This document shows positions 8,071 to 50,495 of a DNA stretch of 64,000 nucleotides, piece after piece. Position 1 is the first letter of the stretch. Every line of letters starts with the position of its first letter. The stretch is from Balanoglossus misakiensis (taxonomy: Eukaryota; Animalia; Hemichordata): positions 8,502,232 through 8,566,231 of the forward strand of contig CM082589.2 in the NCBI GenBank assembly GCA_040954595.2. The letters are read 5' to 3'. The position numbers and the translations under genes were made by a program. The notes under the pieces were generated by a model that did no database searches, was not told the origin of the DNA, and saw only the letters and a program-made list of their open reading frames with translations.

Positions 8071-8163
8071 GTCAGTCAACACCACTATCCAATGGATCCA
8101 GTCGTACACATGTATCGGCCAGAGCAAGCCAGCTTAGTGGAGAATCAGCTGATATCTTATCTG
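8071..8163 (+). CDS. PDE10A: PDE10A-like putative N-terminal exon ([31 protein letters not shown])
   Basis: ttttcag acceptor, G|gtatta donor, open frame, phase 1-1, joins the 10056 exon in frame; no recognisable homology. Confidence 0.6.
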
Positions 8164-29100: not shown

Positions 29101-32100
29101 ATGGAGAAGGCCCGCAACCCGCAACAAAGACACATAAAGAAATAAGGTAATTACCAGATTTGGATCTTATTCCTGCTATACTGGTGTGAAGAGGTATATA
29201 TTTAAATACACTCAGTTTAATTTGTCATTTTTGCAAAAAAAAAAAATCAATTTTTTGGCATTTTTCAGTGAAAAAAACCTCTAAAAATCCCGAATTCCAA
29301 AGTGCTGTAATATTTTAATGAATTGTCCAATGATGAAAATGTAAAAAGTTTGATATTTTCCAGAAAAATCTCTCTGAGAAAATAATATAAACTGATGCGT
29401 TTCTTGATTATAGCATTTTGTGTGACACCCCTACTAATATGTAGCTTGGCAGAGGACTATGAACAGCAAAAGCACACATTGTACAACATAATGTGCACTT
29501 GGCTTTGCCTCGTACATAAATTTCGTACAATGTGCGCTTTTGTCAAAGTTTGGCATTTATCATATGCACATATTGAACTGGCCACATATTGTATGTTTTA
29601 AGGGGAAATGTGTCAAGTACATGTACATGTACTGAATAATATACATTGTCTTTTTTTTCCACTTTTCGATCATTCTCAGTCACTACTTAAATCTTGACCA
29701 TGTTAGTGTTTACTCTTAAACTGCAGACAGAAATAAAATATGTCAAAATTGCATGAAAAAAAAAATCACACCATCACACCCCATTTCAGCTAAGGAGGAC
29801 AATGATCAAGATTAGTATATCCCTTCTTAAGTTTTCTTGGCATTTCATGTTTGTCTTGCGAGATCATGTCATGTGTTTGTTGATTATTATCTGTCCTCAG
29901 ATTCTCAATGGAGAAGGGCATTGCAGGCCATGTAGCTTCTACAGGGGACACTTTGAATATTCCTGATGCATATCTTGATGACAGGTTTAACAGGTAAGTG
30001 AAGCATTGTTTCTAATTTGTCAACTACTGTAAAAAAAATTGAAAAAATTGCGTGAATTTTTATTTTCACGCTATTTTGGCTCTCGCGTATTTCTGCACAA
30101 GTTTGATTGCCCTGTATGACAACAAGGGCAAGGTTGACGCATGCGCAGAAGTAACTTCAGCTCTTTCGTGAAATACATGCATTGATATAATTTTGTCATT
30201 TCAGGGATGTGGATGTGCAGACAGGATATATAACGAAGACAATACTCTGTATGCCAATTTACATCAGGGGAAAGTGAGTCTTCACAGGATTTTTTTCAGT
30301 ATTTACCTCCAATTTGGTATATCACACCAGCCAAAAATATTGGCACGTCTGAAAAATGAAAATTTACCATTAAAAAAAAGATTGGTCTAATGTGTTCTTT
30401 TTTTTTGTATAAAAAACACACAAATGGTTTAGCCTATTTTAGTCAATGCAGATGTGTTACTGAAAAACAAATGACTTCTTACTGGAGGAACGTGTAGAAA
30501 ATTTCTGTGGTAATAGGACCATATCTAATATCATTTCATTTGCTTTTCATCAATGTTCAAAACTCATGATTATCCATGGTGAGAAAACTTTATTCACATT
30601 TAAATATTTATATTTAAATATTGACCAATTAGGACTTTCAGAACATCCACATATACATACACAGTATAGAACCAAGCCTTCAGGTTTTTTCCAAAGCGAA
30701 AAATAAAAAAAGCTACGTTCTAGACTAAGCTATGGTATGTACCTTGTCGCAGTGGTAGGGCAGTCTATATGCTGACCAACTGAGATATAAAATCAACATG
30801 TTTCCATCAGTACACATACTAACTGTTTTCTATTAAAGTACTATATGTTGATATCAGAAAAATGGTAAAAAAAAATTTCAAGCGTCTTTATATTTGAAGT
30901 TGTTTAACAAATTGTTTTATTTTGAACAGCATCATTGGTGTTATGCAAATGGTGAATAAAAAAAATGGAAAGTTTACACGGAGTGACGAAGAATCCTTTG
31001 AAACATTTGCTATCTACTGTGGTTTGGCTTTACATCATGCAAAGGTATGTGACATCTGTGCAGAGTTTTTGGCTCCGAAGTGTTTAAGTGCGTAGCTCGT
31101 CTCACACGCATGTTCCAGCTGTAGCCGCTGGTTACAGACGTTAAGTGAACAGTCAATCCCATAAGGCAGTGCTCTGTCCTAACAACAGAGAAGATGGCGG
31201 TGACCTTAATCTGTGTCGGAGATCGGGAAAAGACACTAGCTTGGGTGAAAAGGAGGGACAAAACCAGAATCTACTTATACGGTGCGCATGAAATATGGAA
31301 GGAAGCGATGGCAGTCCACTATTTGAATGCATCGAACGGAAAATTTGCTTGGAAGTTACATGCATGCGCGTGAGACAGGCTACCCGCTTTAAACGAGGAG
31401 TTTTTGGTATTGGGAATTCTGCTACTTCTGGTGTCAACTTCCATCCGTCAACCTGTCAAGAATACATACCATTTATTGGTAGGGGTGTGTAGCTTTGAGT
31501 TTGAGGTGTTGAGAAAGAATTGGAACAGTGACAGAAATCGGAATGGATTAGCCAGTGTGAAGTTTTATTCAAAGTATCCAAGTTCGGAATACCCAGCTGA
31601 TGTTGCAGTATTACTCACTTTGTATTTGTGCGTGATAAATCTGTTTCATAATTGATCATGGCATGGAGTAGCTGGCCTCTTATGTCGCATCTTTACATGG
31701 TATGACCCTTTATGACGTGATATGCGCGGTATGCAGCTCAAAATGGAAAACTTTTCATCAAAACACTTGAGCTGATCCTGAATGCTGATATTTTTTTTCA
31801 AAATGTATGTCTTTCATGTTTAGTACTTCTACTTGCACTGTTTTTTTTTCAAAATGCATTTCTCATACCTTGCGCTGGTGCAATTTGATATAACAATACG
31901 CAATGAATTCCATCAGTAGAACATATAGAGTATAACCTATAGAGGGTGCTACTTATGAAAGTCGTGTATAACACACGATACAAAATCTGAGAGGGAAATG
32001 ACAGAATGACAGAATATATTTGTGTGAGACCATTTGTGTGTGCGGGCCATTTAAAACAGTTATTAGAGCCCTTGACAAGTGGTTTTTCCCCCTGCCAAGC

Positions 32101-35100
32101 ACCCACCTTATCAGGCTGCATTCAATATTACATGAGCAAAACAGTTCAGCATTTCACCTTGGTCTTTGCAAATTGTTCCTTTCACCCATATACCAAACCA
32201 CTGTTCTCCAACCATGCTGCTCATTGACACTGAGAGAGCACCAAGTGTCTTTGACGCTATTTTATGTTATTTTTTTGGGGTTTAATCCCACGCGACTGTG
32301 TTTTAACTGCACATTTTCCCTGCTGCATGTTAGTTCAGGGGCACGTTTTACCACAGCCAGCAGTGGTAAAACTGTATTTTACCATCACTCTCGTCCAATC
32401 AGAATGGCCTTGGTGGACGGTAGAATGATATATTATAATTTGTTTTTTTTGTCTTGGGTGGGTGACTATACATTCTGATCAGGTGTAGTGTTTTATCTGA
32501 CCCTATGACCCCAACTAAACCATTTTGAAAAAAAATGTTGTCGTCCATAGCTCTGCTGGTGCTGTTCTGGAAGTTTTGTTGTCTTTCTGCCGTGATCTTT
32601 TGCTGTTGAAGATTTTGACAGCAAAATCTAGGCCATCAGCACAAATACCTACAGCTTGTTTATTGCCTTGATGGACATGATCAAATCTCATCGCCTGAAA
32701 AGTTGTCCCCATGAAGTTTCTATTATACTGCTGCCATAATGTACCTGATTTGTCCTCTAATAAAATACTTAGTCACACCCATACAAGGAGACGATATATT
32801 TTGACCTTTGAACTACTTGACATGGACGTACATTTACACAGACGTATTCCGTTGAGTGCGCATGTACAAACATGCAAATCAGTTGCTGAAGTCCCAAACA
32901 TGTTTGTCGTTCTCCAATTTTATTGGATTTTTCTTGATTCTATCCACTTTTGTCAATTATTATAACATGCTAAACCAAAATATTTTCGGAAAAATATTTG
33001 ATCACTATCGTAAGAGCTGGAGAATCTATTAACATTTTCAAAAGAATATCAAAACACCTCTCTGGTCTACTCTCACCGTACATAGATTTTTGCTGAAAAC
33101 TGAAAAACATATAAACAGAACAGTCCAATGTAAAGTTGTCCCTGTGGGAGTGACTTCCTACATTGGACTAGGGATCAAGGTGCAAAAAGTTGACTGATCC
33201 CGTAAACCGGTGGTGTGTATGCTACAGCCCTACATTGTAACTTAGATGTAGGATAGATCCATAGCAGAGGCTGTGGTGTCCATCCCACTCAACTTTTTTT
33301 GTTCTTTTTGAATTTTTGTAGCTGTTTAGAATTTCTGTTATACAGTGTTTCATCTAATCTGTACTGAGGATAGAGGGATTCCTGCAATTTGCCGAGCATT
33401 TTAGTCATCACCATCACGCCACAAGACTCGCACCATAGTTGACAGCGCTACAATAGATTATACATGTTATAGACGGTGTCAACGGTACGGCCTGTGGCTG
33501 GATGGGCCATCTTGTGGGCCATTCAGCCATCCAACCATCCCACCATGGCTACAATTATTGCAGCTATAGGAAACACAAGTTGATAACTCGGTCAATTCAC
33601 AAGCAGTGCACAGTGACCTCCAACCACAGTTGCTAGTATGGCTCTCTGAGCTCTGACCCACTGGCCACTTTAAGTTTAACCCATGTTTAAGCAACAAAAA
33701 GTAAATGTTCATTTTTCACAACCACATACCATGGCATATGTATAACTAGATGTAGGGGGTTATGGCAAGCAAGGTAGCTTTAAAGTGAAGGGGTCATCAC
33801 GCCGCGTTTGTTTGTTTCTTTATAAACATTACAGTCCATTGACAAATCCCTGAAATTAGATCATTCTTAGAATGAACGAAGCAGCCAACCATAGCAAAGA
33901 CTGGGCATGACAGCAACTGAAGATCCTAGTAGGTCGTGGCGACTGCAGTGGGGTTTGTGCTGGTATGGGAGGAATTATTCTAATCATGGGGTACACCCTC
34001 ACGGCGCGATGACCCCTTTCCTTTAACCCTTTTACCCACATGTCCAGGCTGTATAGTGGTCCACCTTTGCCCTTGAAAACAATAGGATTGGGCAAAACCA
34101 TTTTAGTGAAGGGGTTGACAATGTCTTTTTGGAAGGTATAAAGGTCACACAATTTATCAACACACTCTCTGTGGTGCTACATTAACTCAGATGATATCAC
34201 TGATTGTAACAGGCACAAACCAAATAAGCATATTTGCACATCGATTTTACCGCATCCAATGAGAATTAAAGCTGCAAGCAGCATTGTCGGGCCCAAGCGC
34301 TGATCCGGTATTATATATGCACAGTATGAATGAGAAGAAACAGAATGCTCTATCAGGTGTTTTATCTCATGACATAACAAGGACGTATGTATTTTTCCTG
34401 CTGAAATAGAGTAAAGTAGGTCAAAGGTCACCTGAGGTCACCCAACATTTGGGCAAAATTTATTGACCCATACTGTTCCATGTCCAACAAGAACTAAAAC
34501 TCTAGTTCTATTGGTTCGTCTGTAATTAGGTATGTGCATATTTAATGAGGTCAGCAGGTGTCACAGGTGACTCAAAAATGTGGCTTTACATTTTGGTCCC
34601 ATCCTGCCAAATGCCAAGGCTGTATCTGCCCTGGATTCTGAGATATGCGAAAGTAGGTCAAAGGTCACCAGAGGTCACCCAATATTTGGGCAACAAATTT
34701 TGACCCCATATTGGTCCATGTCCAACAAAAACCAAACCTCTAGCTCTATTGGTTCGCCTGTAATTAGCTATGCACATAATTAATGAGGTCAGCAGAGGTC
34801 AAAGGGGTCATGAAAGTAGCAAAATATTTTGATCACACACAAATCCACATGCATCAAAAACCAAATGTCTAGCCCTATAGGTTAGCCTGGAAATAGATAT
34901 GCAGAAATAATAATGTGTGAAAAGTAGGTCAAAGGTCATGTGAAAAATCGACAAAAATTTGTAACATATTTTAGTCACATGACGATTGATATCCATAAAA
35001 AGAATTTATAATGCTATCAATTTTTAGACTAGAAAAAGAAATTTAAATTTTTCACTGCTTTTTACAAAATCCAATATGGCCGCCATAATCTTCGACCAAT

Positions 35101-38100
35101 CACAATGCTCTTTGCAAACTTGATAGACATCAGTGTAGTGACCATACTCCCCGAATCTTGCGACTCAGTCATCGCCCGTTCTGGAGAAGAAGATTTTTGG
35201 AGTTTAACTATGGTTTTTCGAAAATCCAATATGGCCGCCATAATCTCCGACCAATCACAATGATCTTCGCAAACTTGATAGACATCAGTTAGGTGACCAC
35301 ATACCCCAAACCCCGTGTCTCGGTTATCGCCGGTTCTGGAGAAGAAGATTTTTGAAATTTAAGCCAGATTTCAGAAAAAAAATTGTAGCAAAAAAACTGC
35401 AACATTGACAGCAAAATTTCCAATTACAAAAATGATGGGTAGAAGGTAGTCTACCTGCATGCCAAATTTGAAGTCGATCTGACTTGTAGTTTCTGAGATC
35501 TGAGATTTGCATTTTTTCAGAAAATCCAATATGGCCGCTAGGTCACGTGACTAATTAAGTATTCACATGTCACTGCACATCTACTCATTGACCTTGACCA
35601 CTGTAGCAAGTTTGAGAAGTGTACCTGCAGCGTTGTCTGAGATCTCGTTGCCCAAAGAATTGACACAAGAATAAAGAAAGAATTAAAGCTGCGAGCAGCA
35701 TTGTCGGGCCCAAGCGCTGATCTTGAATTATATATGCACAGTGTGAATGAGAAGAAACAGAATTTTCTATCGGATGTATTATCTCATGACATAACAAGGA
35801 TGTGTGTATTTTTGCTGCTGAAATAGGGTGAAGTAGGTCAAAGGTCACCTGAGGTCACGCAACATTTTGGTAATTTTTTTTTACCCATACTGGTCCATGT
35901 CCAACAAAAACCAAAACTCTAGCTCTATTGGTTCACGTGTAATTAGGTATGTGCATATTTAATGAGGTCAGCAGGTGTCACAGGTGACCCAAAAATGTGG
36001 CTTTACATTTTGGTCCCATCCAACCAAATGCCATGGCTGTATCTGCTCTGGATGCTGAGATATGCGAAAGTAGGTCAAAGGTCACCAGAGGTCACGCAAC
36101 ATTTGGGCAAAAAATTTTGATCCCATTCTGGTCCATGTCCAACAAAAACCAAACCTCTAGCTCTATTGGTTCGCCTGTAATTAGCTATGCACATAATTAA
36201 TGAGGTCAGCAGAGGTCAAAGGGGTCATGAAAAGTAGCAAAATATTTTGATCACACACTAATCCACATTTATCAAAAACCAAACGTCTAGCCCTACAGGT
36301 TAGCCTGGAATTAGATATGCAGAAATACTAACGCGTGATAAGTAGGTCAAAGGTCATGTGAAAAATCGCCAAAAAATTGTAACACATTTTAGTCACATGA
36401 TGATTGATATCCATAAAAAGAATTTGTATGCTATCAATTTTTAGACTAGAAAAAGGAATTTCAATTTTTCACTGCTTTTTACAAAATCCAATATGGCCGC
36501 CATAATCTTCGACCAATCACAATGCACTTTGCAAACTTGATAGACATCAGTGTAGTGACTATACTCCTCGAATCTTGCGACTCAGTCATCGCCCGTTCTG
36601 GAGAAGAAGATTTTTGCAGTTTAACTATGGTTTTTCGAAAATCCAATATGGCCGCCATAATCTTCGACCAATCACGATGATCTTCGCAAACTTGATAGAC
36701 ATCAGTTAGGTGACCACATTCCCCAAACCCCGTGTCTCCGTTATCACCGGTTCTGGAGAAGAAGATTTTTTAAATTTAAGCCAGATTTCAGAAAAAAAAT
36801 TGTAGCAAAAAAACTGCAACATTGACAGCAAAATATCCAATTACAAAAATGATGGGTAGAAGGTAATCTACCTGCATGTCAAATTTGAAGTCGATCTGTC
36901 TTGTAGTTTCTGAGATCTGAGATTTGCATTTTTTCAGAAAATCCAATATGGCCGCCAGGTCACGTGACTAATTAAGTATTCACAAGTCACTGCACGACTA
37001 CTCATTGACCTTGACCACTGTAGCAAGTTTGAGCAGTGTACCTGCAGTAGTTTCAGAGATTTAGTTGGCCGAAGAATTGACACAAGAAAAAAGAAAGAAA
37101 GAAAGAAAGAAAGATTAAAGCTGCAAGCAGCATTGTCCGGGCCCAAGCTCTATTATCTGATCTGATTATTAGATATGCACATAATTAATGAGTAGAAACA
37201 TAATGCTGTGTTTTATCCCATGAAATATCAAGGTTATATCTATGTTTGGTGTTGATATAGTGTTAAGTAGGTCAAAGGTCACCCAGAGGTCACCCACAAT
37301 TTGGGCAGAAAATTTTGACCCATAGTGGTCCATGTCCAACAAAAACCAGACCTCTAGCCCTTTTGGTTAGCCCGGAATTAGGTATGCACATAAATAATGA
37401 GTTAAGCAGGTGTCACAGGTGACCCAAAACTTTGGCTTTTCATTATGGCCCCATACCTCCAAACGCCAAGGCTGTATCTGGTGTGGATGTCGAGATATGC
37501 AAAAGTAGGTCAAAGGTCACCCGAGGTCACCCAACATTTGGGCAAAATATTTTGACCCCATACTGGTCCATGTATAACAAAAACAAAACCTCTAGGTCTA
37601 TTGGTTCATCATTAATTAGGTATGTGCATATTTAATGAGGTCAACAGAGGTCAAAGGGGTTATGAAAAGTAGCAAAATTTTTTGATCACATACAAATCAA
37701 CATACATCAAAAACCAAACTTATAGCCCTATTGGTTAGCCTGGAATTAGATATGCAGAAAAATGATGCGTCAAAAGTAGGTCAAAGGTCATTGCCAAAAT
37801 TACCAAAATATTTATAGCTTATTCTTGGCATATGATGATTCATATCCATTAAAAAGAATTTCTGATCTATCAATTTTTAGGCTGGAAAGGGAATTTCAAT
37901 TTTTCACTGCTTTTTACAAAATCCAATATGGCCGCCATAATCTTTGACCAATCACAATGCTCTTTGCAAACTTGATAGACATCAGTGTAGTGACCACACA
38001 CACCAAATCTTGTGACTCAGTTATCGCCGGTTCTTGAGAAGAAGATTTTTGAAATTTTACTAGGGTTTTTCGAAAATCCAATATGGCCGCCATAATCCTC

Positions 38101-41100
38101 GACCAATCACAATGATCTTCGCAAACTTGATAGACATCAGTTAGGTGACCACATACCCCAAACCGCGTGACTTAGTTATCACCGGTTCTGGAGAAGAAGA
38201 TTTTTGAAATTTAAGCCAGATTTCAGAAAAAAAATTGTAGCAAAAAAACTGCAACATTTACAGCAAAATATCCAATTACAAAAATGATGGGTAGAAGGTA
38301 GACTACCTGCACACCAAATTTGAAGTTGATCTGACTTGTAGTTTCTGAGATCTGAGATTTGCATTTTTTCAGAAAATCCAATATGGCCGCCAGGTCACGT
38401 GACTAATTAAAAATTCAAGGGTTCAATGCACGACTACTCATTGACCTTGACCACTGTAGCAAGTTTCAGAAGTGTACCTGCAGCGGTGTCTGAGATCTAG
38501 AGCGACAAAGAAATGACACAAGAATAAAGAAAGAAAGAAAGAAAGAAAAACCCCAACGAAACCAATAGGGCCCAAGCGCTGGTATGCGCTTGGGCCCTAA
38601 AAAACCCCAACGAAACCAATAGGGCCCAAGCGCAAGCAAGCGCTTGGGCCCTAAAGAAAGACAGAAAGAAAGAAAAATTCCAACGAAACCAATAGGGCCC
38701 AAGCGCTTGCGTGCGCTTGGGCCCTAATAAAGGACGGAAATATATGCAAACCATAGACATTATAAGTTTGTGGCATATTCCATGCTTTTCGAACATTTCA
38801 TTCAAAATTAGTTTTCTGAAAACCCTAACTTAATTCATTTACTTTCACAGATTGTGCATTTTTAATTATGAATTACAGTAACCTTGACAGTTTTGTCGGG
38901 AACGGTACATGCTTGCAGTATCGGTGAATCATTTCAGTTACGGGTGTCTCACCATTGTGAGTGTTTCTACGTTCAGAGTGTACTTTATATGATCTGCAGG
39001 TAGTGCTAGCAAGTGGTGAAAACCCTGGGAGCCGGATACCAGATTTGATGAACTTTCCAGTTCATGCTGTCGACAATCTTACGACTAGAGTGTGCTGATT
39101 TTGGGCAGAACACTCTGGTCGAAGGTCTGTTTGCAGCATGATTGGTCTGCCACAGTCACTTCGTATTTGGAGTGACTGGTCATCAAATCCAAGGGTCTGG
39201 GTTCCTATTCGGGTTTTCCTGCAGCTTTGACTATAATTAATTTTATAAAACCTCATGGTAGGGAATTTTTTGCTCTTTTTTGTGTCACAATTTTGTACAT
39301 TTAAAGGAAAAGTATCTCATGTAAAAAGTATCACAGTAAAACCTGTCTAAACAGAATCCTGTCTAATCTAGCAACCTGTCTATACCAAACATTTTTTTCC
39401 AGTCCCTTTCATATAGAACCACATGTTTAAAGCAAGGTATAAAACAAACATCTCTCCAAACCAAACTGTTATTTCAGTCCTATGGTGTCAGGTTTAAACA
39501 CGTTTCACACTGTTTATGTTTAAGTAAAATGTTAATTAATTAATTAATTAATTGATAAACTATTAAACTTTATTTTCCCTAAAATGGGAAATTTGTCTTG
39601 AAACGGCACACACATGCATCATTAAAAATATACATCACCGACCAAACAGTGGTAATAAACAAATTACATGTAGAAAGTTATGCAACAACAAATTGAAACA
39701 AGATTAAAAACTACAGACACAGCCTTATGACATTGTCTGGTTGAGTTCTAGTATGGATTTCCTATGATTCCTTTAGTATAGCTTTCACATGCACCCAGTA
39801 CAACTACACTTGCTATTGCCTTTGGCATGTGGTCAATTCTGGCTGCCTTAAATAGGTTTTCACTTTGCGCTAGGGGGTCAAATCACATTGCATTCTGGGT
39901 TAAAAGTCGACTACCCACTGTAGTAAGAGATAGAAGAAATGATATGTTTACTGTATTTTATGACTTCCTTTGGTCAAACACGCTTCAGAATGACCCATCA
40001 TCACGTTAGTTTATGAACTCCCATTTCTTAAACATGGCAAAAATCGGCCATCTTGAAATTGTGGCGACCATATGAGATTTTCATCACTCTCTTAGGTAGC
40101 TTAAAACCTATTTAAGGTAGGGAGATTTGTCGTCATGTAGCAAGCAAGTCCACACACAAAACCACTATGCGAAATCCTCATCTCAGTGTAACATACAGTC
40201 CTGCCTGTTTTGCTATGAATTCATTTTTATACAGGAACCCATTGTCTATGGGGCCGAGCCTCAGCGCCTATACATAAACTTTGTGTGTGTGGACACCACG
40301 CGACTCAAAGGATTGATGCTCTGTGTTTACCATAGGCAAATAGAGTCTCTGAAACGTTTTGAATCTTTACCAGTGTGATCGTGGTAATAGAGAGACTGTG
40401 TCATTATTAATCTTCACCATGAAAATGACTGTGGAGGTGATGTGGCAAGTGGGAAAGTGGGAAGTCGCACATGATTGCGAGACTCAGCTGACTACATTGA
40501 GCTTTGGGACATTCTTTGCACAGCCGGCTGACGTGCAATGATTTCCATTGGAACATGCTCGCAGTGCCTACATACTTACATGTATATCTATCCTTCTGTA
40601 CCTCAAAATGCCATTCCTTTAGGGTTTGTTTTAAATTCTGGAAAGTAAGAGCAAAATGTTTAAGGGCAAACAGATTCTTTGTTACTAGCGAAAATTCTTG
40701 GGTCCAGGTAGCGAAAAGTTTTGGGTCTGGGGTTTTGTCCAATACACTTGCATGGCACTCTGAGGGTTAAATATACAAAATGGGAGCAATGTAATTGACA
40801 CTATTTATCAAGATTCCCCTACATTTATAATTTCAAAGGAACACTTTCTTCTTCCAGCTTTATGATAAAATTCGGCGATCAGAACAGAAATATCGAGTTG
40901 CAGTGGAAGTGTTATCATACCACAGTCAATGTACTGATGGAGAATATGAAGTAATCCGAAGCAAACCATTACCACAATCAAATCCTGAACTTGCAAGGTA
41001 ATTACCCGTTACATTTGTAACATGCCATACTTATTCAATTACTTCAATTGTCTTGTGGTGTCTGTTAAGATGTACCCCCCCCCCCACAGAAATTCATGTT

Positions 41101-44100
41101 TCTGACACTAACATAAAAACTCTGGAGATGACTTGAGTTTATCATTAATGCTTCGTTATGCTGAGTTGGTGTGTTATGGCAAATGTGATAAGCATATACT
41201 AGTAGTGTGCAATTATCTACATATATACATCAGCTTTTTTACAGAAATTGACCACTGTAGTTAGGATTTACTTCACCTCTAAAAAGTATGATCAATTCAT
41301 ATTGCTTTGGTATAGAAAGAAGCTTAATTCAATACAAACCTTGATGTCCATGCCCGCAATTATTCTATACTCCACTTTTGATAACCCTCTGAATACATTT
41401 CAAATTCAGTCAAATTAAACACCAATGGAATTTCCATGGCAACATATTGAAGCACCAATAAATAATGACAGTTTTGAATTATTTCTCCAGGTACGAGTTC
41501 TCACCATGGCATTTAGAAGAAGAAGCCAAGCCACTCTATGTGTTGTGTATGTTCAGAGATTTGTTTGGTTTGACAAAGTAAGTTCCTATACTAGATTTAA
41601 AGCTTGTTTGTTATCTCTCTTTTTTTGAGTTTTGACTAGGAAGTTACTGTTAAACGGGTTATTTTCGCGACATGAAATTTTCGCGACATCAAAAGAGGCA
41701 ACTGTTACCCGAGGATTAATTTTCGCATTTTCGTATTTCACTGCATTGTTATCTCTGAAAAACATTTTTACGCGACTTTTTATTTTCACATTGTTTTTGC
41801 TGTCGTGTATTTCACGAAAATGTATCTCTCGCGAAAATAACCCGTTTTACAGTACATTGCACCTTCAGTCATGTTTTCCTTGAGTTCCTTGAACACTGGA
41901 GCTCCCACACAAAACTGTTCGTTTTCGTCTAGTAGGACAAAGAATTGGTCCAAGAAAAAGTGGTACCAGAAAAAAAAAACCAACAACACCAATTATCACA
42001 AAGAAACTTATGTCCTTGATGCTTTTTCTGGCAGTCCAATTCAAATGTGTTATCATATAGAAATGTTCCTTTTAACAGGTTTGGCTATGATGAGTTATGC
42101 AGATTTACACTGAGTGTACGCAAGAACTATCGCAAAGTTCCATATCACAATTGGACACATGCTTTTTCAGTAGCACATTCAATTTACACAGTTATCAAGT
42201 CCTCACCAGGAATTTTTTCAGATTTAGAGGTATGTCACTTGTCAGAATTTTACTCATGTTATTTTATCTTAAGTATCATTATTATACATTCGTAGTTGTG
42301 CATTTGACAGAAACAGACATGAAATCGACCTTTCGTACATGTCTCTGCCTGTCCCATAGCTGATTGAAAGAAGTTGCTTGTCATACTCAAATGTGTTTTT
42401 ACAGTTTTTGGTTAAAAATCAGTTTTTCTAGCGCTGCTTGTAAGATTGCTTTGACACATGACACTTGATTGGGCATAGTTAATTTTTTTTATTTCCATAT
42501 TTTTTATATAGTTATGCCATATCTGCTTGCCAATGCCACCTGTGATTTTAATTCAGTGTATACCTACATGTACTTCTGTGTACTCCACAAATGGGACCAC
42601 AGTGTCCTTGACGCTATGTTTATTTCTTGCAGTGCCTGGCATTGTTTGTGGCTTGTCTTTGCCATGATCTTGATCATCGAGGTAAAAACAATGCTTTCAT
42701 GGTGAATAATGCTACACCCCTTGCTGCTGTGTACAGTACCTCAACAATGGAACATCATCATTTCAACCAAACTGTTACTATTCTCCAGGTAGGTCATTTC
42801 ACATTTTACTGAAGATGAAACACTCACATTTTTCTGCACAATAAGATCTACATGATTTTTATCTCCATTGTCACCTACATGGAGCTCATGCACCTTTGAA
42901 ACTTGGTGTGCAGAGAGGTCCCTTGGGATGACCTAGTCAGATGTTATCATGGTTGACAGAATCTGCAATATTGTATTTTGAGGGCAATATTCTTTTTTGT
43001 TGTATTTTTAATCCAACTGATACAGCAGAGTGCTTCATATTTCTTAATACTGAATGTGGATTTGCTTGTCAATAATATATATTGAAGCAATGAAACCTAT
43101 TATACACAAATTCTATGGACATGTGAGAACAAGTCAGTATGACCTTTCAGTTTACCACTAAAATGCATATATTCAAAAGATACAGATAAAAACATCGTGC
43201 TCAGGAGATATCCGATATAATCAATTTCATCACCTCAAGAGAGCTTATTTCCATTGACCTTTCAATCTTCATAACATTGAGCTTAGACAAAAGTGGGATA
43301 CTATGACAGAAATTGTGAATGCCAAAACCAGCCTTGAGTGATTTAGCTTGGGTCTTTTCAGCCTCTTTCAGCGATGATTTAGTAATGTGAATGCTGTTCA
43401 TACCATATTGAAAAACGGGTTATTTTCGCGAGCGATAAATTTAGGCGAAATACGCAAGAGGCAAAAAAACGTGAAAATAAAATGTCGCGTAAAATGTTTT
43501 TGTGAAATATGAGAACGCAAAAATTAATCCTCGCATAACAGTTGCCTCGTTTGATATCACGAAAATGTTGTGTCGCAAACATAACCCGTTTTACAGTATG
43601 TTAGAAATGGCCTTATAGCAGCATTCCATACATAAGCAAGCATACGTTTGTAACCTTGGGGATTGTGAGTCACCTCCAACCCCCCCTCCCCACTCCCCAC
43701 CCCCAAGTAGTGCTGTTTTAGGGGGGACTCGCAGTCCTGAGGGGTGAAAGACGTATGCTGTTGCCTGAAGGGCCAGTTAATATGTGTTTTGTAACACACC
43801 TCATCCGAAGCCATGCATAAGAACATGAAGTGAGCGGGCATCATTTTTCGGAACTGATGCCCGCACACCACGCGACTATCAATTGACGAATGAGAACACA
43901 GTCTGTGCATGAGGTGTGTTACAATTTGCAATGATGCACTTTCTTATTATATTCTCCCCACAGAATGAAGGCCATAATATTTTGCGGAATTTAACAGCAG
44001 AGGAGTACAAACAGGTGATTGGTGACATTAAACATGCAATCTTGGCAACTGATCTTGCTCTTTTCTTTGGAAACAAGGACAGACTCAAAGCAATAGTTGA

Positions 44101-47100
44101 TTCAGGGAAATATGACTGGCAAGATACAGAACACAGGTAGGCTTGTACAGAATTCAACTGGGTAGTATTATTTGATACTCCCCAAAGTTCGTATGCCTCT
44201 TGAAAGTCATGGGTTTTTAAAAATTACTGTATGAATATCTGAGAAATGTTTAAAGGGACATCTGGTAAATATGTATTGTGTATGTTACTTTTTATGTAAA
44301 ATTAACGATCAAGGGGGGGGGAGCACAGTATCTTTGACGCTATAATCATATTCTGTCTATGGAAATTCTCTGTCTGTTGCATAAACAACTGTACCTTAAA
44401 GGCAATAGATCGTCTCATGCGCATGTGTATAACCAGCAAATGTTCAGCAAATTTTCCGTACGATGCATTCAAATAGTGGACTAACTTCACTTCCTTCCAT
44501 ATTTCATGCGCACCGTATAAGTAGAATCTGGTTTTGTCCCTCCTTTTCACCCAAGCTTGTGTCTTTTCCCGATCTCCGACACAGATTATGGTTGCTGCCA
44601 TCATATCTGTTGTTCTGACATAGCACTGCCTTATTGGATTGACTGTTCACTAAACGTCTGTAACCAGCGGCTACAGCTGGAACATGCGTATGAGACGAGC
44701 TACGCGCCTTTTAAGGATGTACGTTCAGTAAAATTGAAAGTATTGTCATCTCTTTTAATTGTTGATTTTTGGATTCTCCTGTTTATCTATAATGAAAATC
44801 CGTGATAAAATATAAGGGTTACCGTGCTTGTTTTTGAAATACAGAGCCATGAATTTAGTCAATAGTAGAAAAAAACTGCTGACTCAGCATTTTTCACCAA
44901 TGGTTTTTTTTGTGGGCAAAATTTTGAACGCAATTTATCTCAAAATAGAGTGCGGTGACCCCTATTTTGTATTTGACCAATGAATTTATATTTACTGGAC
45001 TGATCTATGTGTAAAATTTCATGAAAATGACAATAGTAGAAGTTTGTTTTCTAGCGATTATCAATGTAATCCTATGGGAAAAAGACGGGTGCGCGCAGTT
45101 TTCCGGTTGATGTTCTATGCGTACATCCTTCACTGGGCTTTTGTATAAAGATACCCAGTATAGCATGACTGCAATTGTTACTCTTTACAATTGAAAATTA
45201 AGATGGGTCCCTAGGATCTTTTTGCTCGTTGCTATGGGCCTTTATAGGACACTACACTCAATTTTGATCGAAACCGTTATGAACGTCCGACAAGGGGCTT
45301 GTAACTAGTTAAAAATACACACGATTGTGTGCACACCCCCTGTCGGAGTATGTTTACGGCAGCTACCGCCCGGCCATAGGCCGCCACGCTAATACGGCAA
45401 AGCAGCGGTCAGCGATAGCATGCGCGTCCAGTAACCACAGTAACTGGATCGAACGCTAAAAATCCAATGTTTTGTACACAGAGATTTTGTACCGTTCACG
45501 AAAATCCCTAAGGCTTTTTTCACAGGCGACGTAGGCCAGCCAAATTTGACCTGCTTGTTGAGAACGCACTTCCGCATAGTGTGACGGATCGTTTTTTCGG
45601 TTTTCGTCGTGCTAAGAAGCGATACCAGTGGAAGAGTGCGTCCAAAAACACCCAAAATCGATGACTTTTTCAGGTGTGGTACGGGTATGCTGAAATCGTA
45701 GGATACAACGATAATATTCGAAAACAAAATCCGTCACGATCTTCCCTGGTTCAAGCAACTAATGAATACGTATCAAGTTCGTTTTTGAGGTCACGGAATA
45801 AAAAGCCTTAGGCTTTTGAAATTTGACCTAACTAATTTGCATATCAATGGCGTCAGGGGGCGCGCGCTCACAATCGTGCGTATTTTTAACTAGTTACCAG
45901 CCCTTTGTTAGACTCTGAAAACGGCTTAGTCCAAATCGGGGTGTAATGTCCTATAAAGGCCCATAGCAACGGGCAAAAAGATCCTAGGGACCCATCTTAA
46001 ATGGCTTGAGATGGTAAATGTAGTCAGCATGAATGACAATTGACAACTCACAAGATATGACCTGTGTTGATGAACTACATACATTCATGTCATTTTAACC
46101 AAAATGGAGTAGATTTAAAATTGCTGATGTACAGATGTGTTTGGGCTCTAACAGAGCTTCTGAATAGGGTGCACTGTACGTGGTACTCAAATTTGGAATT
46201 CAAGTCGCTACATAATGTAATCTTCTCAATCAATGCATGACCAGCATTAAAGGGACAAAGTCTCTCTCTCGCTGCCCTTTTCCCATTAATTAAGTTTGAT
46301 ACAAGACACCGTTTATGTTAGTCTACATTTAGATATATAGTGAATCAACATTCGACCACAAACAACTTCCATCCCGTTTGTAGGATATGAGAGTAAAAAT
46401 CTCGCAAAAATGAATAAATGGTAAACACTGATTATTCCTTTTGGTAATTTTTTCACACTCTTGTCTACAAGTGGGATGGAAAGAGTGTGTGGTTGAACGT
46501 TGATTCACTATATATCCACATAACATAAACAGTGTCTTCTATCAAAAGGGCAGCGAGAGAGATACTTTGTCCCTTTAAGAATGGCCAGGTTTCTCTCCTC
46601 ACTAACATTATTCTTCATTCTTTCCTCCTCTCTTTATTCCTGCCTGCATGGAATTGTTCCATCTGCATAACATTTCATATCTTCATGACAACTGATCTAA
46701 CACTTAGAATGCGAGTGAGAGCACTGTGCATGACAGCATGTGATCTGTCAGCTGTCATGAAACCATGGGATGTCCAACAACAAACTGTCAAAGTAATATT
46801 TGATGAATTCTATGCACAGGTAGAGAAAAATTACATTTCTAAATTGTCTTCTGTCACCTGCATGCATATGTGTTGCTAGATAGAGTCAATTAGTCACACT
46901 GTGAATGGTTTATTGGAGTCAAATCACTGCACAAAATTAACTGCTAACCAGAGAAATCATGAACTCTATAGTATTATTAAAGGGACAAAGTCTCTCTCTC
47001 TCTCTGCCCTTTTCCCATTAATTAAGTTTCATACAAGACACCATTTATGTTAATTTACATGTGGATATATAGTGACCGAATGTTAAACCACACACACGTT

Positions 47101-48825
47101 CCATCCTGCTTGTAGACATGAGCGTGAATAAACTAACCAAAATGAATAATTGGTCTCTACTAGTTACTCGTTTTGGGCGAGTTTTTTCTCTCATATCCTA
47201 CAAACGGGATAGAAGGTGTTTGTGGTTGAACGTTCATTCACTATATATCCACATGTAGAATAACACAAAGGGTGTCTTGTATCAAACATAATTAATGGAA
47301 AAAGGGCAGCGAGAGAGACAGACTTTGTCCCTTTAATAGTTTGTTCCTTACTTTCATGAAAAAAGTCTGTTCAGATATTTTTGTACGTATTTTTTTATTC
47401 TATAGTAAGCCTTTACAACCTGGCTATTTGACTCTATGATATATTTGTGTACACCCCTATGAAGTGACCATCTAGTGTAATGCATGCTCGTGTGTTTGTA
47501 TTTTGTGATCCCTTTGTATCTGTAGGTATCTCAGCAAGGCAATATCTATGACTGCAGCAGATCTGTGTGCTACATCAAAACCATTTGATATTTCCCAGCA
47601 TGTGGTCAATCACATTTTTGAAGAATTCTGGCAACAGGTGAAGTATTACTGACTACCATACAAATTTTCTCTGTCAGTAATTTGTGTGAATTTGATATGG
47701 ATATGGAATGATATCTAGATATATGTAATATTTGTTCCCAAAAAATCATGCAGCAAAAACATTTGATGCATTGTCCTGTAAAACTAAGTGAGAGCTACAA
47801 ACATTGCTATCAAATAAGTCCTCATATAAAAGAAAGTAATTTGAAGTTTATGATTTTAACCTTGGGAGGGGCAATTGGTCATGACATCATCATGTAAGAT
47901 ATTAAGAAACTTCCATGTTTTGGAGAGTTTGGGGAGGGTCATTGTATTTTTCCATCCATTTTTCCTTCAGGCAATTTTATTGAATTCCAAGAACACTATA
48001 GTTCTAGTAGCACTCACATCATTGTAATTAGTACCCCAGTCATATAGCAGTTCTGCCAAACAATATCAATACATGTACATCAATATGTCAAACATCTCTC
48101 ATCACAGTTATATACAGAACACAATGAGAAATCAGTAGTGAGATTTGTGACTGATAACTTTCAAGGCTGGTTCTCTTTATTCTGCCTTCTCAGAAACAGA
48201 AACCTGCTGATGTTTGATGACTAAATTTTTAATGATTCAGAGATTCTTTGGAATTGGAACATTGAGATGTGTGTACATGTGTATGTGTACATCTACGACA
48301 ATAAACACTCCATGGTGATATATAAACATGGTTACAGATAGGCAGCCTCTTAAAGCCCCTATAGCTGCCAAATTTCAGTCACATAATTATATTTTTCCAC
48401 AATAAAATACTTCAAATATATTCCCTATCCTCTAAATTCCTCACCATTAAGCCATATTACTTGCATAGAATGTTTCTCGGTACTATTTTAGTCTCTTCAT
48501 AAGACATGAACAGCTGAGTGTAAAAATCGATAATACGAAAGTATGGATTTTGCAATATTAGCAGAAAATGAAACGCATGCATGCATGAGTGTCCACTGCA
48601 TGTTGGTATTTAGTGTGTAGATGCATGCTGGTCTAAATTCCATCTACAAGTTACTGTAAACCAGGATCTTTTAGCATGCCAGATATTTTTGCGACTTTCA
48701 CGATCACAAACAGAACAAGAACATTTTCCACACGCAAAGTTTTCATTAAAATTCATGATCTTGTCATGCAAGATGAACGCTGTTATAATTTTGTATGTAT
48801 GTATGTATGTATGTATGTATGTGTG

Positions 48826-48885
<60 letters not shown>

Positions 48886-50495
48886 TACGTATGCTCGATA
48901 CTAAAGTAGAGTGGAACATTAAGTAAGGGTTTGGAGAAACGGTAGGCACTATAATCTCTACAACGTTGATTCGTGGGTCACGTAGGACTCAGTTATTAGA
49001 GAGACTCAACTGGCGAAAATACAGGGGAGGAGACATGGTTATACACATGTGGTGGAATGTTGTTTGGGTGACTGGGCAGTTTTGCCTAGTAACAATGTGT
49101 AGCTGCTATTTTTGTCAAATACATCTTATGACACATAATTTCCAATGTATTTGCAGGGTGATGAAGAAAAGGCACAAGGTCGGCAACCAATCCCAATGAT
49201 GGATAGAAATAGAGCACATGAACTACCAGCCAATCAGGTACTTCCTTTCATTTCATCGTCGACAACGAAAAGAAATTGCATTTAATTGTTCACCAGTTAG
49301 TATTCTTTACTATCAATCACGTGATCTGGACATGTGACCCATGGCGTTGTCATTTCCAGGTGACGGGCAAGCAATATTTCGGCATCCAGTAAAAGTTTTT
49401 CCGAGTATGTTTTTACTTTAAAACCGCCAGACACGTAACATGTATCAGGTATAATGCCTTATAAGCCTCATGGCGTTTCGTCATACTTTCTCAATAGGTG
49501 GGTTTTATCGTTGGCATCTGTATGCCATGTTATGAACTGCTCTACAGGATTCTCCCAGGATCCAAACCAATGATGGATGGCACAGCGTAAGTCAACATTT
49601 ATGTGAGCTAGAACATGCCTTAGGGTCTGACGGTTAAAAAAATGATAGCCCTCCAAACATAGAAAAATAAAACAAGTACAGAAATTTTTCAGCAAGTAAT
49701 GATTACTGTAAAACGGGACAGGAAATTTTCGCAAAATTAAAAGAGGCAACTGTTATGCGATGATTAATTTTTGCATTCTCTTATTTCATTTACTGCATCG
49801 TTATCTCAAAAAAACATTTTACGCGACTTTTTATTTTTACGCTTTTTTGCTCTCGCGTATTTTGCAAAAAAGTTATTGCCGGTGAAAATAACCCGTTTTA
49901 CAGTATTTAGAAATAAACTGAAGATCGAATCAGTCATTTATACTGTTTTCAACATAAGTGCAAACATGAGTGTCTCCTTTAAAGGGACAAAGTCTCTCTC
50001 TCGCAGGCCTTTTCCATTAATTATGTTTGATACAAGACACCATTTATGTTATTCTACATGTGGATATAAAGTGAATTAACGTTTGACCACACATAACTTC
50101 CTTCCCAATTGTAGACACAAGAGTGAAGAACTCTCCAAAATGAGTAATTGGTCTTTACCATTTATGCATTTTGGCGGGATTTTTACTTTCATATCCTACA
50201 AACGGGATGGAAGTTGAGTGGAGTCAAACGTTGATTCACTATATCCACATGTAGAATAACATAAACTTTGTCTTGTGTCAAACATACTGAATAGAAAAAG
50301 GGCAGCGAGAGAGAGACTTTGTCCCTTTAAATGTAGTAATTTTGATACAAATGTAGCACAGGGTCCTTAACACATTTTTTGTTTACTTTCACCAGGAAAA
50401 ATTTGCAAAATTGGTCTGCTCTGGTTGCTAAGCAGAAAGCTGAGGAGGAGGAAAGAAAGAAAATCGAAGATAACAAATCAGCCGAGGAACAGTAA
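8071..50495 (+). CDS. PDE10A: PDE10A-like GAF-A/GAF-B 3',5'-cyclic-nucleotide phosphodiesterase (multi-exon gene span; 5' end not resolved)
   Basis: Hand-spliced exons join in frame from 10056 to TAA at 50493-50495 (2327 nt, about 775 aa). Motifs: [17 protein letters not shown] (NKFDE), catalytic [26 protein letters not shown](C/A)DL, invariant Gln in PANQVGF. Degenerate GAF-A and overall layout resemble vertebrate PDE10A as recalled. Confidence 0.92.
8207..8507. mobile_element. piggyBac-like MITE (…GCATTAGGG|TTAA end); right end also present at 1-96
   Basis: 8412-8505 nearly identical to 1-94; imperfect TIR taaccttaatgc/gcattagggttaa. Confidence 0.6.
10056..10217 (+). CDS. PDE10A: PDE10A-like exon ([23 protein letters not shown]...)
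   Basis: tttttag acceptor, A|gtaagt donor; resembles the PDE10 N-terminal EKVKAYLSLHPQVLDEFV segment. Confidence 0.88.
10250..10549. mobile_element. MITE family K3 (about 300 bp, TTAA-flanked); other copies 31088-31388, 44400-44710, partial about 26730-26850
   Basis: shared core aacaacagacaagatggc...gatcgggaaaa...; source of the recurring VKRRDK pseudo-ORFs. Confidence 0.75.
10881..10918 (+). CDS. PDE10A: PDE10A-like exon ([13 protein letters not shown])
   Basis: actag acceptor, AAG|gtaggt donor; phase 1-0 bridges its neighbours. Confidence 0.8.
11194..11542. mobile_element. MITE family K2 copy
   Basis: TTAA|AGCCCCTATAGCTGCC ... GGCAGCTCTAGAGGCT|TTAA. Confidence 0.85.
12005..12166 (+). CDS. 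PDE10A: PDE10A-like exon, start of GAF-A ([14 protein letters not shown]...[14 protein letters not shown])
   Basis: ttttcag and gtaagt sites, 162 nt, phase 0-0. Confidence 0.88.
12472..12721. mobile_element. MITE family K1 copy (AGGGACAAAGTC TIR), shortened
   Basis: AGGGACAAAGTC...GACTTTGTCCCT|TTAA. Confidence 0.85.
12903..12934 (+). CDS. PDE10A: PDE10A-like 32-nt exon ([10 protein letters not shown])
   Basis: long pyrimidine tract with ccag acceptor, gtaagt donor, phase 0-2. Confidence 0.82.
13080..13188 (+). CDS. PDE10A: PDE10A-like GAF-A exon ([21 protein letters not shown]...)
   Basis: ttccag and gtgaga sites, phase 2-0; GAF GxTIAxxVA motif. Confidence 0.88.
13620..13713 (+). CDS. PDE10A: PDE10A-like GAF-A exon (DMRYSEGL...[17 protein letters not shown])
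   Basis: ttttcag and gtgagt sites, phase 0-1; matches PDE10 QSVLCLPI. Confidence 0.9.
13833..14123. mobile_element. GGCC-ended MITE (Harbinger-like); partial copy about 15161-15370
   Basis: taggccaaataaaatatgtggtgttccgattacc ... ggtaatcggaacagcacatatt...ggcctta inverted ends. Confidence 0.6.
15813..15871 (+). CDS. PDE10A: PDE10A-like GAF-A exon ([20 protein letters not shown]) with GC donor
   Basis: gacag acceptor in phase 1; only GAG|gcaagt gives the phase 0 needed by the next exon. Confidence 0.82.
15945..16284. mobile_element. MITE family K1 copy (about 340-bp palindromic element, TTAA TSD)
   Basis: TTAA at 15941 and 16285; long inverted arms. Confidence 0.88.
17100..17150 (+). CDS. PDE10A: PDE10A-like exon ([17 protein letters not shown])
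   Basis: caacag and gtaatt sites, 51 nt; aligns to PDE10 VATANLAWASVAI. Confidence 0.88.
17474..19425 (-). mobile_element. About 1.95-kb Kolobok-like element nested in a K2 MITE, with a degenerate THAP-like start
   Basis: TTAA at 17470-17473 and 19426-19429; imperfect TIR AGAGCCTATCTTACC/GGCAAGATATGCTCT; subterminal inverted GTGACGTCACAAGAGGAACC; host MITE resumes after the element. Confidence 0.8.
20270..20630. mobile_element. MITE with (c)cttaaataggtttt TIR; inverted copy about 39836-40125
   Basis: ctccctaccttaaataggtttt ... aaaacctatttaaggcagccag; reverse-complement copy at 39.8-40.1 kb. Confidence 0.7.
21069..21417. mobile_element. MITE family K2 copy
   Basis: TTAA|AGCCTCTAGAGCTGCC ... 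GGCAGCTCTAGAGGCT|TTAT. Confidence 0.85.
24042..24423. mobile_element. TTAA MITE with GGATGTACG TIR; related copy 44715-45128
   Basis: TTAA|GGATGTACG ... CGTACATCC|TTAA. Confidence 0.78.
25342..25871. repeat. Long foldback palindrome (about 530 bp), probably a non-autonomous transposon
   Basis: cacaggtcgcac...gagagcgcttagagt arm is mirrored by actctaagcgctctc...gtgcgacctgtg; inner arms accacggccatcttg/caagatggccgtggt. Confidence 0.7.
26445..26503 (+). CDS. PDE10A: PDE10A-like exon ([20 protein letters not shown])
   Basis: pyrimidine tract with atag acceptor, gtgagc donor, phase 0-2; PDE10 ELNDFLLDVSK-like. Confidence 0.9.
26995..27046 (+). CDS. PDE10A: PDE10A-like exon ([17 protein letters not shown])
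   Basis: ttgtag and gtaagt sites, phase 2-0. Confidence 0.9.
29004..29146 (+). CDS. PDE10A: PDE10A-like GAF-B exon ([18 protein letters not shown]...KEIR)
   Basis: ttttag and gtaatt sites, phase 0-2. Confidence 0.92.
29901..29993 (+). CDS. PDE10A: PDE10A-like GAF-B exon ([31 protein letters not shown])
   Basis: cctcag and gtaagt sites; classic GAF GIAGxV...NIPDAY..RFN. Confidence 0.94.
30205..30273 (+). CDS. PDE10A: PDE10A-like GAF-B exon ([22 protein letters not shown])
   Basis: tttcag and gtgagt sites, phase 2-2. Confidence 0.93.
30930..31044 (+). CDS. PDE10A: PDE10A-like GAF-B exon ([38 protein letters not shown])
   Basis: gaacag and gtatgt sites; NKFDE motif intact. Confidence 0.94.
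31088..31388. mobile_element. MITE family K3 copy
   Basis: TTAA flanks at 31084 and 31389; imperfect TIRs; inverted relative to 44400-44710. Confidence 0.8.
34264..38729 (-). mobile_element. Three stacked about 1.42-kb Helentron-like (HINE-type) non-autonomous elements
   Basis: bodies start at about 34264, 35681 and 37114, each with a gctgc(a/g)agcagc hairpin and gggcccaagc subterminal repeat; three gggcccaagcgc...gcgcttgggccc end hairpins at 38546-38729; (AAAG)n tracts. Confidence 0.75.
40858..40997 (+). CDS. PDE10A: PDE10A-like exon ([25 protein letters not shown]...)
   Basis: cttccag and gtaatt sites, phase 0-2. Confidence 0.93.
41491..41577 (+). CDS. PDE10A: PDE10A-like exon ([29 protein letters not shown])
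   Basis: ctccag and gtaagt sites, phase 2-2. Confidence 0.88.
41646..41853. mobile_element. TA-flanked about 200-bp MITE (TACTGTAAAACGGG...CCCGTTTTACAGTA); copies about 6665-6877, 43410-43597, 49704-49904, 58363-58580
   Basis: short TIR and shared core aaagaggcaactgttacc...ttaattttcgc. Confidence 0.72.
42079..42229 (+). CDS. PDE10A: PDE10A-like catalytic exon ([33 protein letters not shown]...)
   Basis: taacag and gtatgt sites; YHNxxH motif. Confidence 0.96.
42633..42788 (+). CDS. PDE10A: PDE10A-like catalytic exon ([20 protein letters not shown]...[14 protein letters not shown])
   Basis: ttgcag and gtaggt sites; HDLDHRG class I PDE signature. Confidence 0.96.
43964..44136 (+). CDS. PDE10A: PDE10A-like catalytic exon (NEGHNIL...[14 protein letters not shown]...EHR)
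   Basis: ccacag and gtaggc sites, phase 0-2. Confidence 0.95.
44400..44710. mobile_element. MITE family K3 copy
   Basis: reverse-complement similarity to 31088-31388; TTAA at both ends. Confidence 0.8.
45202..45996. mobile_element. About 795-bp TTAA-flanked element with long TIRs (Kolobok-like, non-autonomous)
   Basis: TTAA|GATGGGTCCCTAGGATCTTTTTGC ... GCAAAAAGATCCTAGGGACCCATC|TTAA; TIR similarity extends about 130 bp; GC-richer than flanks. Confidence 0.88.
46251..46574. mobile_element. MITE family K1 copy upstream of exon A
   Basis: TTAA|AGGGACAAAGTC ... ACTTTGTCCCT|TTAA. Confidence 0.88.
46598..46650 (+). promoter_or_regulatory. Candidate distant branch point and polypyrimidine tract for exon A
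   Basis: CTCACTAAC (branch A at 46605), then a long C/T tract; no AG from 46589 to 46705. Confidence 0.6.
46708..46819 (+). CDS. PDE10A: PDE10A-like mutually exclusive exon A ([37 protein letters not shown])
   Basis: cttag and gtagag sites, 112 nt, phase 2-0; MTACDL metal-binding Asp motif. Confidence 0.9.
46981..47332. mobile_element. MITE family K1 copy between exons A and B
   Basis: TTAA|AGGGACAAAGTC ... GACTTTGTCCCT|TTAA. Confidence 0.88.
47526..47637 (+). CDS. PDE10A: PDE10A-like mutually exclusive exon B ([37 protein letters not shown])
   Basis: ctgtag and gtgaag sites, 112 nt, phase 2-0, open frame, paralogous to exon A; missed by the ORF track. Confidence 0.88.
48793..48890. repeat. 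Compound microsatellite (GTAT)n(GT)n(GTGC)n
   Basis: directly visible. Confidence 0.95.
49157..49237 (+). CDS. PDE10A: PDE10A-like catalytic exon ([27 protein letters not shown])
   Basis: ttgcag and gtactt sites, phase 0-0; PIPMMDR motif and invariant Gln. Confidence 0.95.
49498..49586 (+). CDS. PDE10A: PDE10A-like catalytic exon ([29 protein letters not shown])
   Basis: caatag and gtaagt sites, phase 0-2. Confidence 0.94.
49983..50326. mobile_element. MITE family K1 copy in the last PDE intron
   Basis: TTAA-flanked, same TIR. Confidence 0.88.
50396..50495 (+). CDS. PDE10A: PDE10A-like last coding exon ([32 protein letters not shown])
   Basis: caccag acceptor in phase 2; NxxxW motif; TAA at 50493-50495. 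Confidence 0.9.

Follow-up and report, generated by a model that had tools for sequence, protein, structure and literature searches.

The hemichordate Balanoglossus misakiensis possesses a PDE10-family phosphodiesterase gene in which two duplicate exons of 112 nt each encode a wall of the substrate pocket and only one of the two is usable per transcript if the reading frame is to stay intact. The arrangement likely gives rise to two active enzymes with different kinetics, of which isoform A, carrying the first exon, is predicted to lean towards cGMP and isoform B, carrying the second, to be less selective. We assign this reading a probability of roughly 0.55. The pair is real, old and apparently undescribed in the literature, and its isoforms stand unremarked in RefSeq. 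The window analyzed in this work is the whole stretch of 64,000 nucleotides taken from assembly GCA_040954595.2 (contig CM082589.2, positions 8,502,232 to 8,566,231, forward strand), and all coordinates given below are positions within it.

A PDE10-family gene in the window

The gene and those of its exons that matter for the argument are located as follows:

8067..50495, + strand: PDE10-family (pde-5 type) gene, GAF-GAF-catalytic, found by tblastn with Ptychodera and Glandiceps models
43964..44136, + strand: constitutive exon upstream of the pair, ending in phase 2
46708..46819, + strand: exon A, 112 nt, ancestral-like type (Asp codon 46742, Trp772 codon 46766, Gln775 codon 46775)
47526..47637, + strand: exon B, 112 nt, derived type (Asp codon 47560, Phe at 772 (47584), Ser at 775 (47593), Trp at 787)
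49157..49237, + strand: constitutive exon, its end coding for the invariant Gln that binds the purine (PDE5 Gln817, PDE10A Gln726)
49498..49586, + strand: constitutive exon that encodes the clamp Phe (PDE5 Phe820)
50396..50495, + strand: final coding exon located, containing the stop codon and the Trp equivalent to PDE5 Trp853

Hemichordate models named 'pde-5' match this gene exon by exon, and its catalytic part is identical to that of Ptychodera flava at 326 of 362 residues, which places the animal among acorn worms near Ptychodera; the first ~53 residues at the 5' end were not located in the window by tblastn with the hemichordate models. Pfam recognizes two GAF stretches and PDEase_I in the Ptychodera isoforms, and the matching exons are present in the window. 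The nematode pde-5, from which the models take their name, is described as a PDE10 ortholog in the accessible text of two papers (PMC12346295, PMC8802716). This is in line with the catalytic-domain scores, which are best for PDE10A (307-323 bits, as against 249-258 bits for PDE5 domains), and with a fold match to vertebrate PDE10A (e.g. 2oun, 2y0j) at TM 0.85-0.89, which agrees with the PDE10 family. In a family tree of 23 rows, from which the alternative exon and P0410 were left out, the catalytic domain of the window and vertebrate PDE10A form one group (99/96) apart from PDE5/6/11-like and PDE2-like sequences. The rows labelled PDE11-like in our trees are ones that we take to be such, and other unnamed representatives were named by their likeness to PDB chains. 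Within the family tree, vertebrate PDE10A and P0377 branch outside all invertebrate orthologs, including that of Nematostella (97/94), a position reflecting either fast evolution or hidden paralogy.

None of the other catalytic exons has a duplicate in the window, and the exon at 49157-49237 with its Gln is single copy. In some relatives, this Gln-ending exon is duplicated, with two versions in Lineus and two run together in models from Pinctada and Periplaneta, and the invariant Gln is replaced by Glu in many bivalve and gastropod models (relatives P0054, P0123, P0076/P0238 and P0008).

Two exons of equal length and phase

Exons A and B are tandem duplicates of equal length and phase, each preceded by AG and followed by GT, with 63 of their 112 bases and 17 of their 37 residues in common. 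They find each other in tblastn with an E value of about 1e-8, the next match in the window lies at E 0.26, and a third copy was not detected by tblastn within the window. Both match Pfam PDEase_I with scores that exceed its cut-off, over one stretch of the profile (150/151-183). With A alone or B alone, the frame stays open through the last exon found; with A and B together a stop is met inside B, and with neither exon a stop is met in the next one. The residues quoted for both exons in the initial annotation, the start of which (46736) falls inside exon A, are indeed present, and its proposal that the two exons are alternatives is supported. The pair fits the structure of homologous mutually exclusive exons in being tandem, homologous, of the same length and phase and flanked by canonical splice sites. 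Nonsense-mediated decay would presumably eliminate transcripts that include both exons or neither.

Exon A is identical at all 37 residues to an exon of Ptychodera isoform X2, and exon B is 92% identical to the exon present in isoforms X1 and X3. Among hemichordates, conservation amounts to 0.96 between A exons, 0.84 between B exons and 0.44 between A and B. Both isoforms of Ptychodera were modelled with AlphaFold (pTM 0.43 for A and 0.41 for B); the models, which show helices and give no pocket contacts, place the swapped segment into the same two helices (738-753 and 761-784) with a pLDDT of about 74-90 for the block.

Spread of the exon pair across animals

Isoforms of the same length that are otherwise identical and carry either A or B are found in at least 14 of 26 genera, among the matches listed for 27 protein clusters. 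The database isoforms are predictions, and the labels A and B were assigned in other species by likeness. The genera are:

Hemichordates: Ptychodera, Glandiceps
Echinoderms: Patiria, Acanthaster, Asterias, Lytechinus, Apostichopus, Antedon, Anneissia
Nemerteans: Tubulanus, Lineus
Molluscs: Mytilus, Saccostrea, Haliotis

Only the A type was found, among the matches listed, for Branchiostoma (19 models), Periplaneta, Hetaerina, Penaeus, Octopus, Watersipora, Owenia, Diadema, Strongylocentrotus and Nematostella, and only the B type for Saccoglossus and Pomacea; absence of an exon from gene models does not mean its absence from the genomes. Not one of the 295 stored models with the motif carries it twice. 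For Ptychodera, Asterias and Apostichopus, the annotation includes frameshifted forms that skip the exon.

Residues of the pocket wall

The segment that is swapped would form a helix-loop-helix constituting one wall of the PDE10 substrate pocket. Active-site residues of PDE10A include Val678, Thr685, Ala689, Ile692 and Tyr693, as stated in the accessible part of PMC12571622; the PDE10A stretch matched to the exon has the spacing of these residues, and they correspond to PDE5 positions 768, 775, 779, 782 and 783, all within the swapped exon. The PDE5 numbering given in the initial annotation for Asp764, Ala767, Trp772 and Gln775 agrees with an ungapped alignment to full-length PDE5A (9lss_A, 757-789) and is used in the following. 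Exons A and B of the window differ at two of the five positions, with Val and Thr at 768 and Gln and Ser at 775, so that the initial claim that the exons differ at a selectivity-linked residue, and within the pocket helix, holds. Position 775 is occupied by Gln in PDE5 and PDE6, by Thr in the dual-substrate enzymes PDE10A and PDE2A, by Ser in PDE11A and by His in PDE1 and PDE3. Further residues that had been put forward as markers do not discriminate in the way proposed: Ala767 is present in both exons, Trp772 also occurs in PDE10A so that the Phe of exon B resembles neither family, the DLC motif is not confined to B as Cys766 is found in 5 of 15 A exons, and EFW is found in cGMP-specific cone PDE6 and is absent from echinoderm B exons. 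Among the proposed markers, position 775 alone is informative.

Isoform A carries equivalents of Ala767, Trp772, Gln775, Gln817, Phe820 and Trp853 and would possess, around the invariant Gln, the full PDE5-type complement of Gln775, Ala767 and Trp853. A hydrogen-bond relay around this Gln that involves Ala767 and Trp853 was reportedly described by Zhang in 2004. Mutation of Gln775 in PDE5 has been reported to lower the affinity for cGMP without creating a cAMP enzyme. The accessible text of PMC10367598 implicates Gln775 and Gln817 in PDE5 specificity, and that of PMC12571622 has Tyr693 holding Gln726 in PDE10A. Exon B lacks Gln775 as well as the Tyr693 of PDE10A. With Ser775 and with Phe at the position of Tyr693, isoform B may present its invariant Gln without either of the known anchors, a situation for which the glutamine-switch model, itself contested (PMC12982385, in the part available), predicts looser selectivity.

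PDE5A and PDE6 form a separate family, and at 783, where they have Ala, the gene of the window has Phe. Among the complete representative rows from this part of the superfamily, no state of position 775 is more frequent than Gln (59 of 132), and the likeness of A to PDE5 is therefore one of shared ancestry. With vertebrate PDE10A the gene shares the GAF-GAF-catalytic layout, the best catalytic match and the positions of Met713, Gln726, Phe729 and Trp762; it differs in that Tyr693 is replaced by Phe in both exons and Gly725, just before the invariant Gln, by Asn. The selectivity pocket of PDE10A, made up of Tyr693 and Gly725, is not matched at either position and is therefore not expected in the enzyme of the window. 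The PDE10 family is further characterized by hydrolysis of both cAMP and cGMP and by a GAF-B domain that binds cAMP.

When 15 A/B pairs are compared at the five listed pocket positions, all differ at one position or more and 14 of them at two or more. Position 775 differs in five pairs only, those of hemichordates and crinoids: Gln is present in 15/15 A exons and retained in 10/15 B exons. The differences lie at 768, 779 and 782 in the other echinoderms and at 768 and 783 in lophotrochozoans. What is conserved across animals is that the pocket wall differs and not which residue does so. As the differing residue varies by lineage, a shift of degree, tuned in each lineage, is likelier than one conserved switch between cGMP and cAMP, and a true switch of this kind between the isoforms would seem unlikely. 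Outside the pairs, Asn is found at 775 in Trichoplax and in Saccoglossus B, and His or Ser in two B-like proteins (P0051, P0328 and P0336 being the sequences concerned); given this variety, the residue has changed several times. At position 772 (window codon 47584-47586 in exon B), Saccoglossus B has Tyr and lophotrochozoan B exons have Trp.

It is also conceivable, if rather unlikely, that both isoforms have the same nucleotide preference and that the swap alters turnover, the coupling to the GAF domains or the M-loop, or a surface of the long helix that serves a partner. The A/B differences are in fact not enriched in the pocket (34/75, 45%, as compared with 286/555, 52%, overall in the 15 pairs). 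The most constant among them are found at 780 (15/15) and at 778, 781, 768 and 769 (14/15 each), which mostly are not listed pocket residues; those at 778, 780 and 781 and in the first helix do not concern the Gln anchor, and residues changed by mutually exclusive exons are generally surface exposed near functional sites, according to the accessible text of PMC7954323. On the other hand, every pair does differ at a listed pocket position, and the B exons of hemichordates and crinoids replace precisely the Gln that is invariant in A.

Origin of exon B and the vertebrate exon

The exon-level phylogeny that had been suggested at the outset was built on 37 columns, with 6 of 62 exon rows left out (P0328, P0336, P0344, P0377, P0136 and Solemya), and it unites all 20 B-type exons in one branch (86/85 with the vertebrate sequences, 90/85 without them). 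Leave-one-group-out profiles classed 26 of 30 exons correctly, the misclassed four being echinoderm B exons. By these profiles the single exons of cnidarians, a placozoan, ecdysozoans including arthropods, and amphioxus score as A, and A is therefore the old form, as the initial annotation had supposed. Exon B probably arose once, by a duplication preceding the protostome-deuterostome split, which would be the simplest reading of the trees, and the A/B pair may possibly be urbilaterian; a separate duplication in Ambulacraria was not rejected (p-AU 0.27).

That the vertebrate exon belongs with B was not supported. Constrained trees uniting vertebrates with all B exons (p-AU 0.56), with hemichordate B (0.38) or with amphioxus (0.27) were all unrejected. 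The free tree set the vertebrates inside hemichordate A on a branch of length 2.46, and this placement was not trusted. By identity, window exon A is the closer one to the vertebrate PDE10A exon (18/37, against 12/37 for B), and it alone shares nine positions with it, while B alone shares three (766, 780 and 787). The profile scores of the vertebrate exon are about equal (44.9 bits for A, 41.3 bits for B). With three placements unrejected, the profiles near a tie and A closer by identity, the vertebrate exon is not assignable to either type.

These results bear on a true specificity switch, in which A would be cGMP-specific like PDE5, and B a cAMP-preferring enzyme corresponding to the form retained in vertebrates as PDE10A, a reading that we regard as improbable. 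The contrast of Gln and Ser at 775 does parallel that between PDE5/6 and PDE10A/PDE2A, the three positions shared by B alone fit, and the tree uniting vertebrates with all B exons improves on the free tree by 0.99 log units. Against this, A shares the larger number of positions, a grouping of vertebrates with amphioxus is unrejected, all 19 amphioxus models listed are of the A type, most B exons of the pairs keep Gln775, Tyr693 occurs in neither exon, and EFW is shared with PDE6. That exon B is a decaying duplicate or specifies an inactive enzyme is highly improbable, for although B evolves faster than A and Trp772, present in PDE5, PDE6, PDE10A and 15/15 A exons, has become Phe in 10/10 ambulacrarian B exons of pairs, its frame is open, its splice sites are intact, Asp764, Leu765, Lys770, Pro771, Glu785 and Phe786 are invariant in 15/15 B exons, 33 of the 132 representative rows have Phe at 772, and B outnumbers A among the models listed for Glandiceps, Tubulanus, Lineus, Mytilus, Saccostrea and Haliotis.

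Splicing of the pair and flanking repeats

Sequence elements around the pair that may bear on its splicing are:

46246..46578, no strand: palindromic ~340-bp repeat (MITE-like) with inverted arms, upstream of exon A
46600..46646, + strand: motif CACTAAC (46600-46606), a candidate distal branch point, together with a pyrimidine tract, some 100 nt upstream of exon A and of putative function
46976..47337, no strand: the palindromic repeat again, as a second copy within the A-B intron

The intron between A and B is 706 nt long and all splice sites are GT-AG, which rules out steric exclusion and U2/U12 mismatch. The likely guard against inclusion of both exons, or skipping of both, would be frame incompatibility with decay of the wrong products. 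Upstream of exon A lies an AG-free zone of 117 nt, the longest of 22 acceptors (16-60 in the others), within which the candidate branch point and pyrimidine tract are located, and gaps of that length account for 10 of the 2281 AG gaps in the gene; the proximal pyrimidine tract of exon A is weak (0.5). Regulated exons often combine a weak proximal tract with a long AG-free zone and a distal branch point. Exon A is probably such a regulated exon, spliced from the distal branch point.

The window contains the palindromic repeat at some ten places, and the two copies listed are predicted to pair across exon A, which could loop out this exon or favour circular RNA. Their position is probably a local accident, one that might bias the A/B ratio. 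As a cause of the exon pair, repeat pairing was discarded because the pair spans phyla and copies of the repeat are present in many introns. The intron upstream of exon A harbours a second element with inverted arms of 143 nt (window 45198-46000), and the intron 3' of exon B a compound microsatellite (window 48790-48890).

Comparison with known systems

A description of the PDE10 exon pair was not found in the main texts of the literature covered, which takes in a minority of the subscription journals. The splice variants of PDE10A differ mainly at the termini, and no such exon pair is described, in the available part of PMC12571622. In invertebrate pde-5/PDE10 orthologs, both isoforms are already deposited in RefSeq as unnamed X isoforms of the same gene (Ptychodera, Glandiceps and 12 further genera), whereas the listed arthropod, nematode, cnidarian, placozoan and amphioxus models carry the A type only. 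The specificity of the nematode ortholog, C. elegans PDE-5, 'has not been evaluated' in the words of PMC12346295, as far as its accessible text goes.

The closest parallel is provided by the selectivity-filter exons of NALCN (PMC3557258, accessible text), where alternative exons of one invertebrate gene likewise swap a selectivity-determining segment. Their spread is nearly the same, from flatworms to non-chordate deuterostomes with a single form in vertebrates, and the functional difference is deduced from sequence for both pairs. Unlike the PDE10 pair, in which the pocket residues of an enzyme vary by lineage, that of NALCN concerns an ion channel and one clear E/K residue. More generally, mutually exclusive homologous exons such as those of PKM and others are tandem duplicates that keep the fold and change residues near functional sites (PMC7954323); phosphodiesterases are not mentioned in the main text of that paper, as far as available (0 matches).

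Implications

The exon pair constitutes a natural experiment, with two otherwise identical enzymes differing in 20 residues of one pocket wall, and at least four phyla repeat this experiment, each time with other residues exchanged. The basis of the preference of phosphodiesterases for cAMP or cGMP is still argued. An assay of the pair would test the glutamine-anchor model directly and would provide the first specificity data for an invertebrate PDE10. The pair would also bring a signalling enzyme into the small set of very ancient exon pairs retained by invertebrates and apparently lost by chordates.
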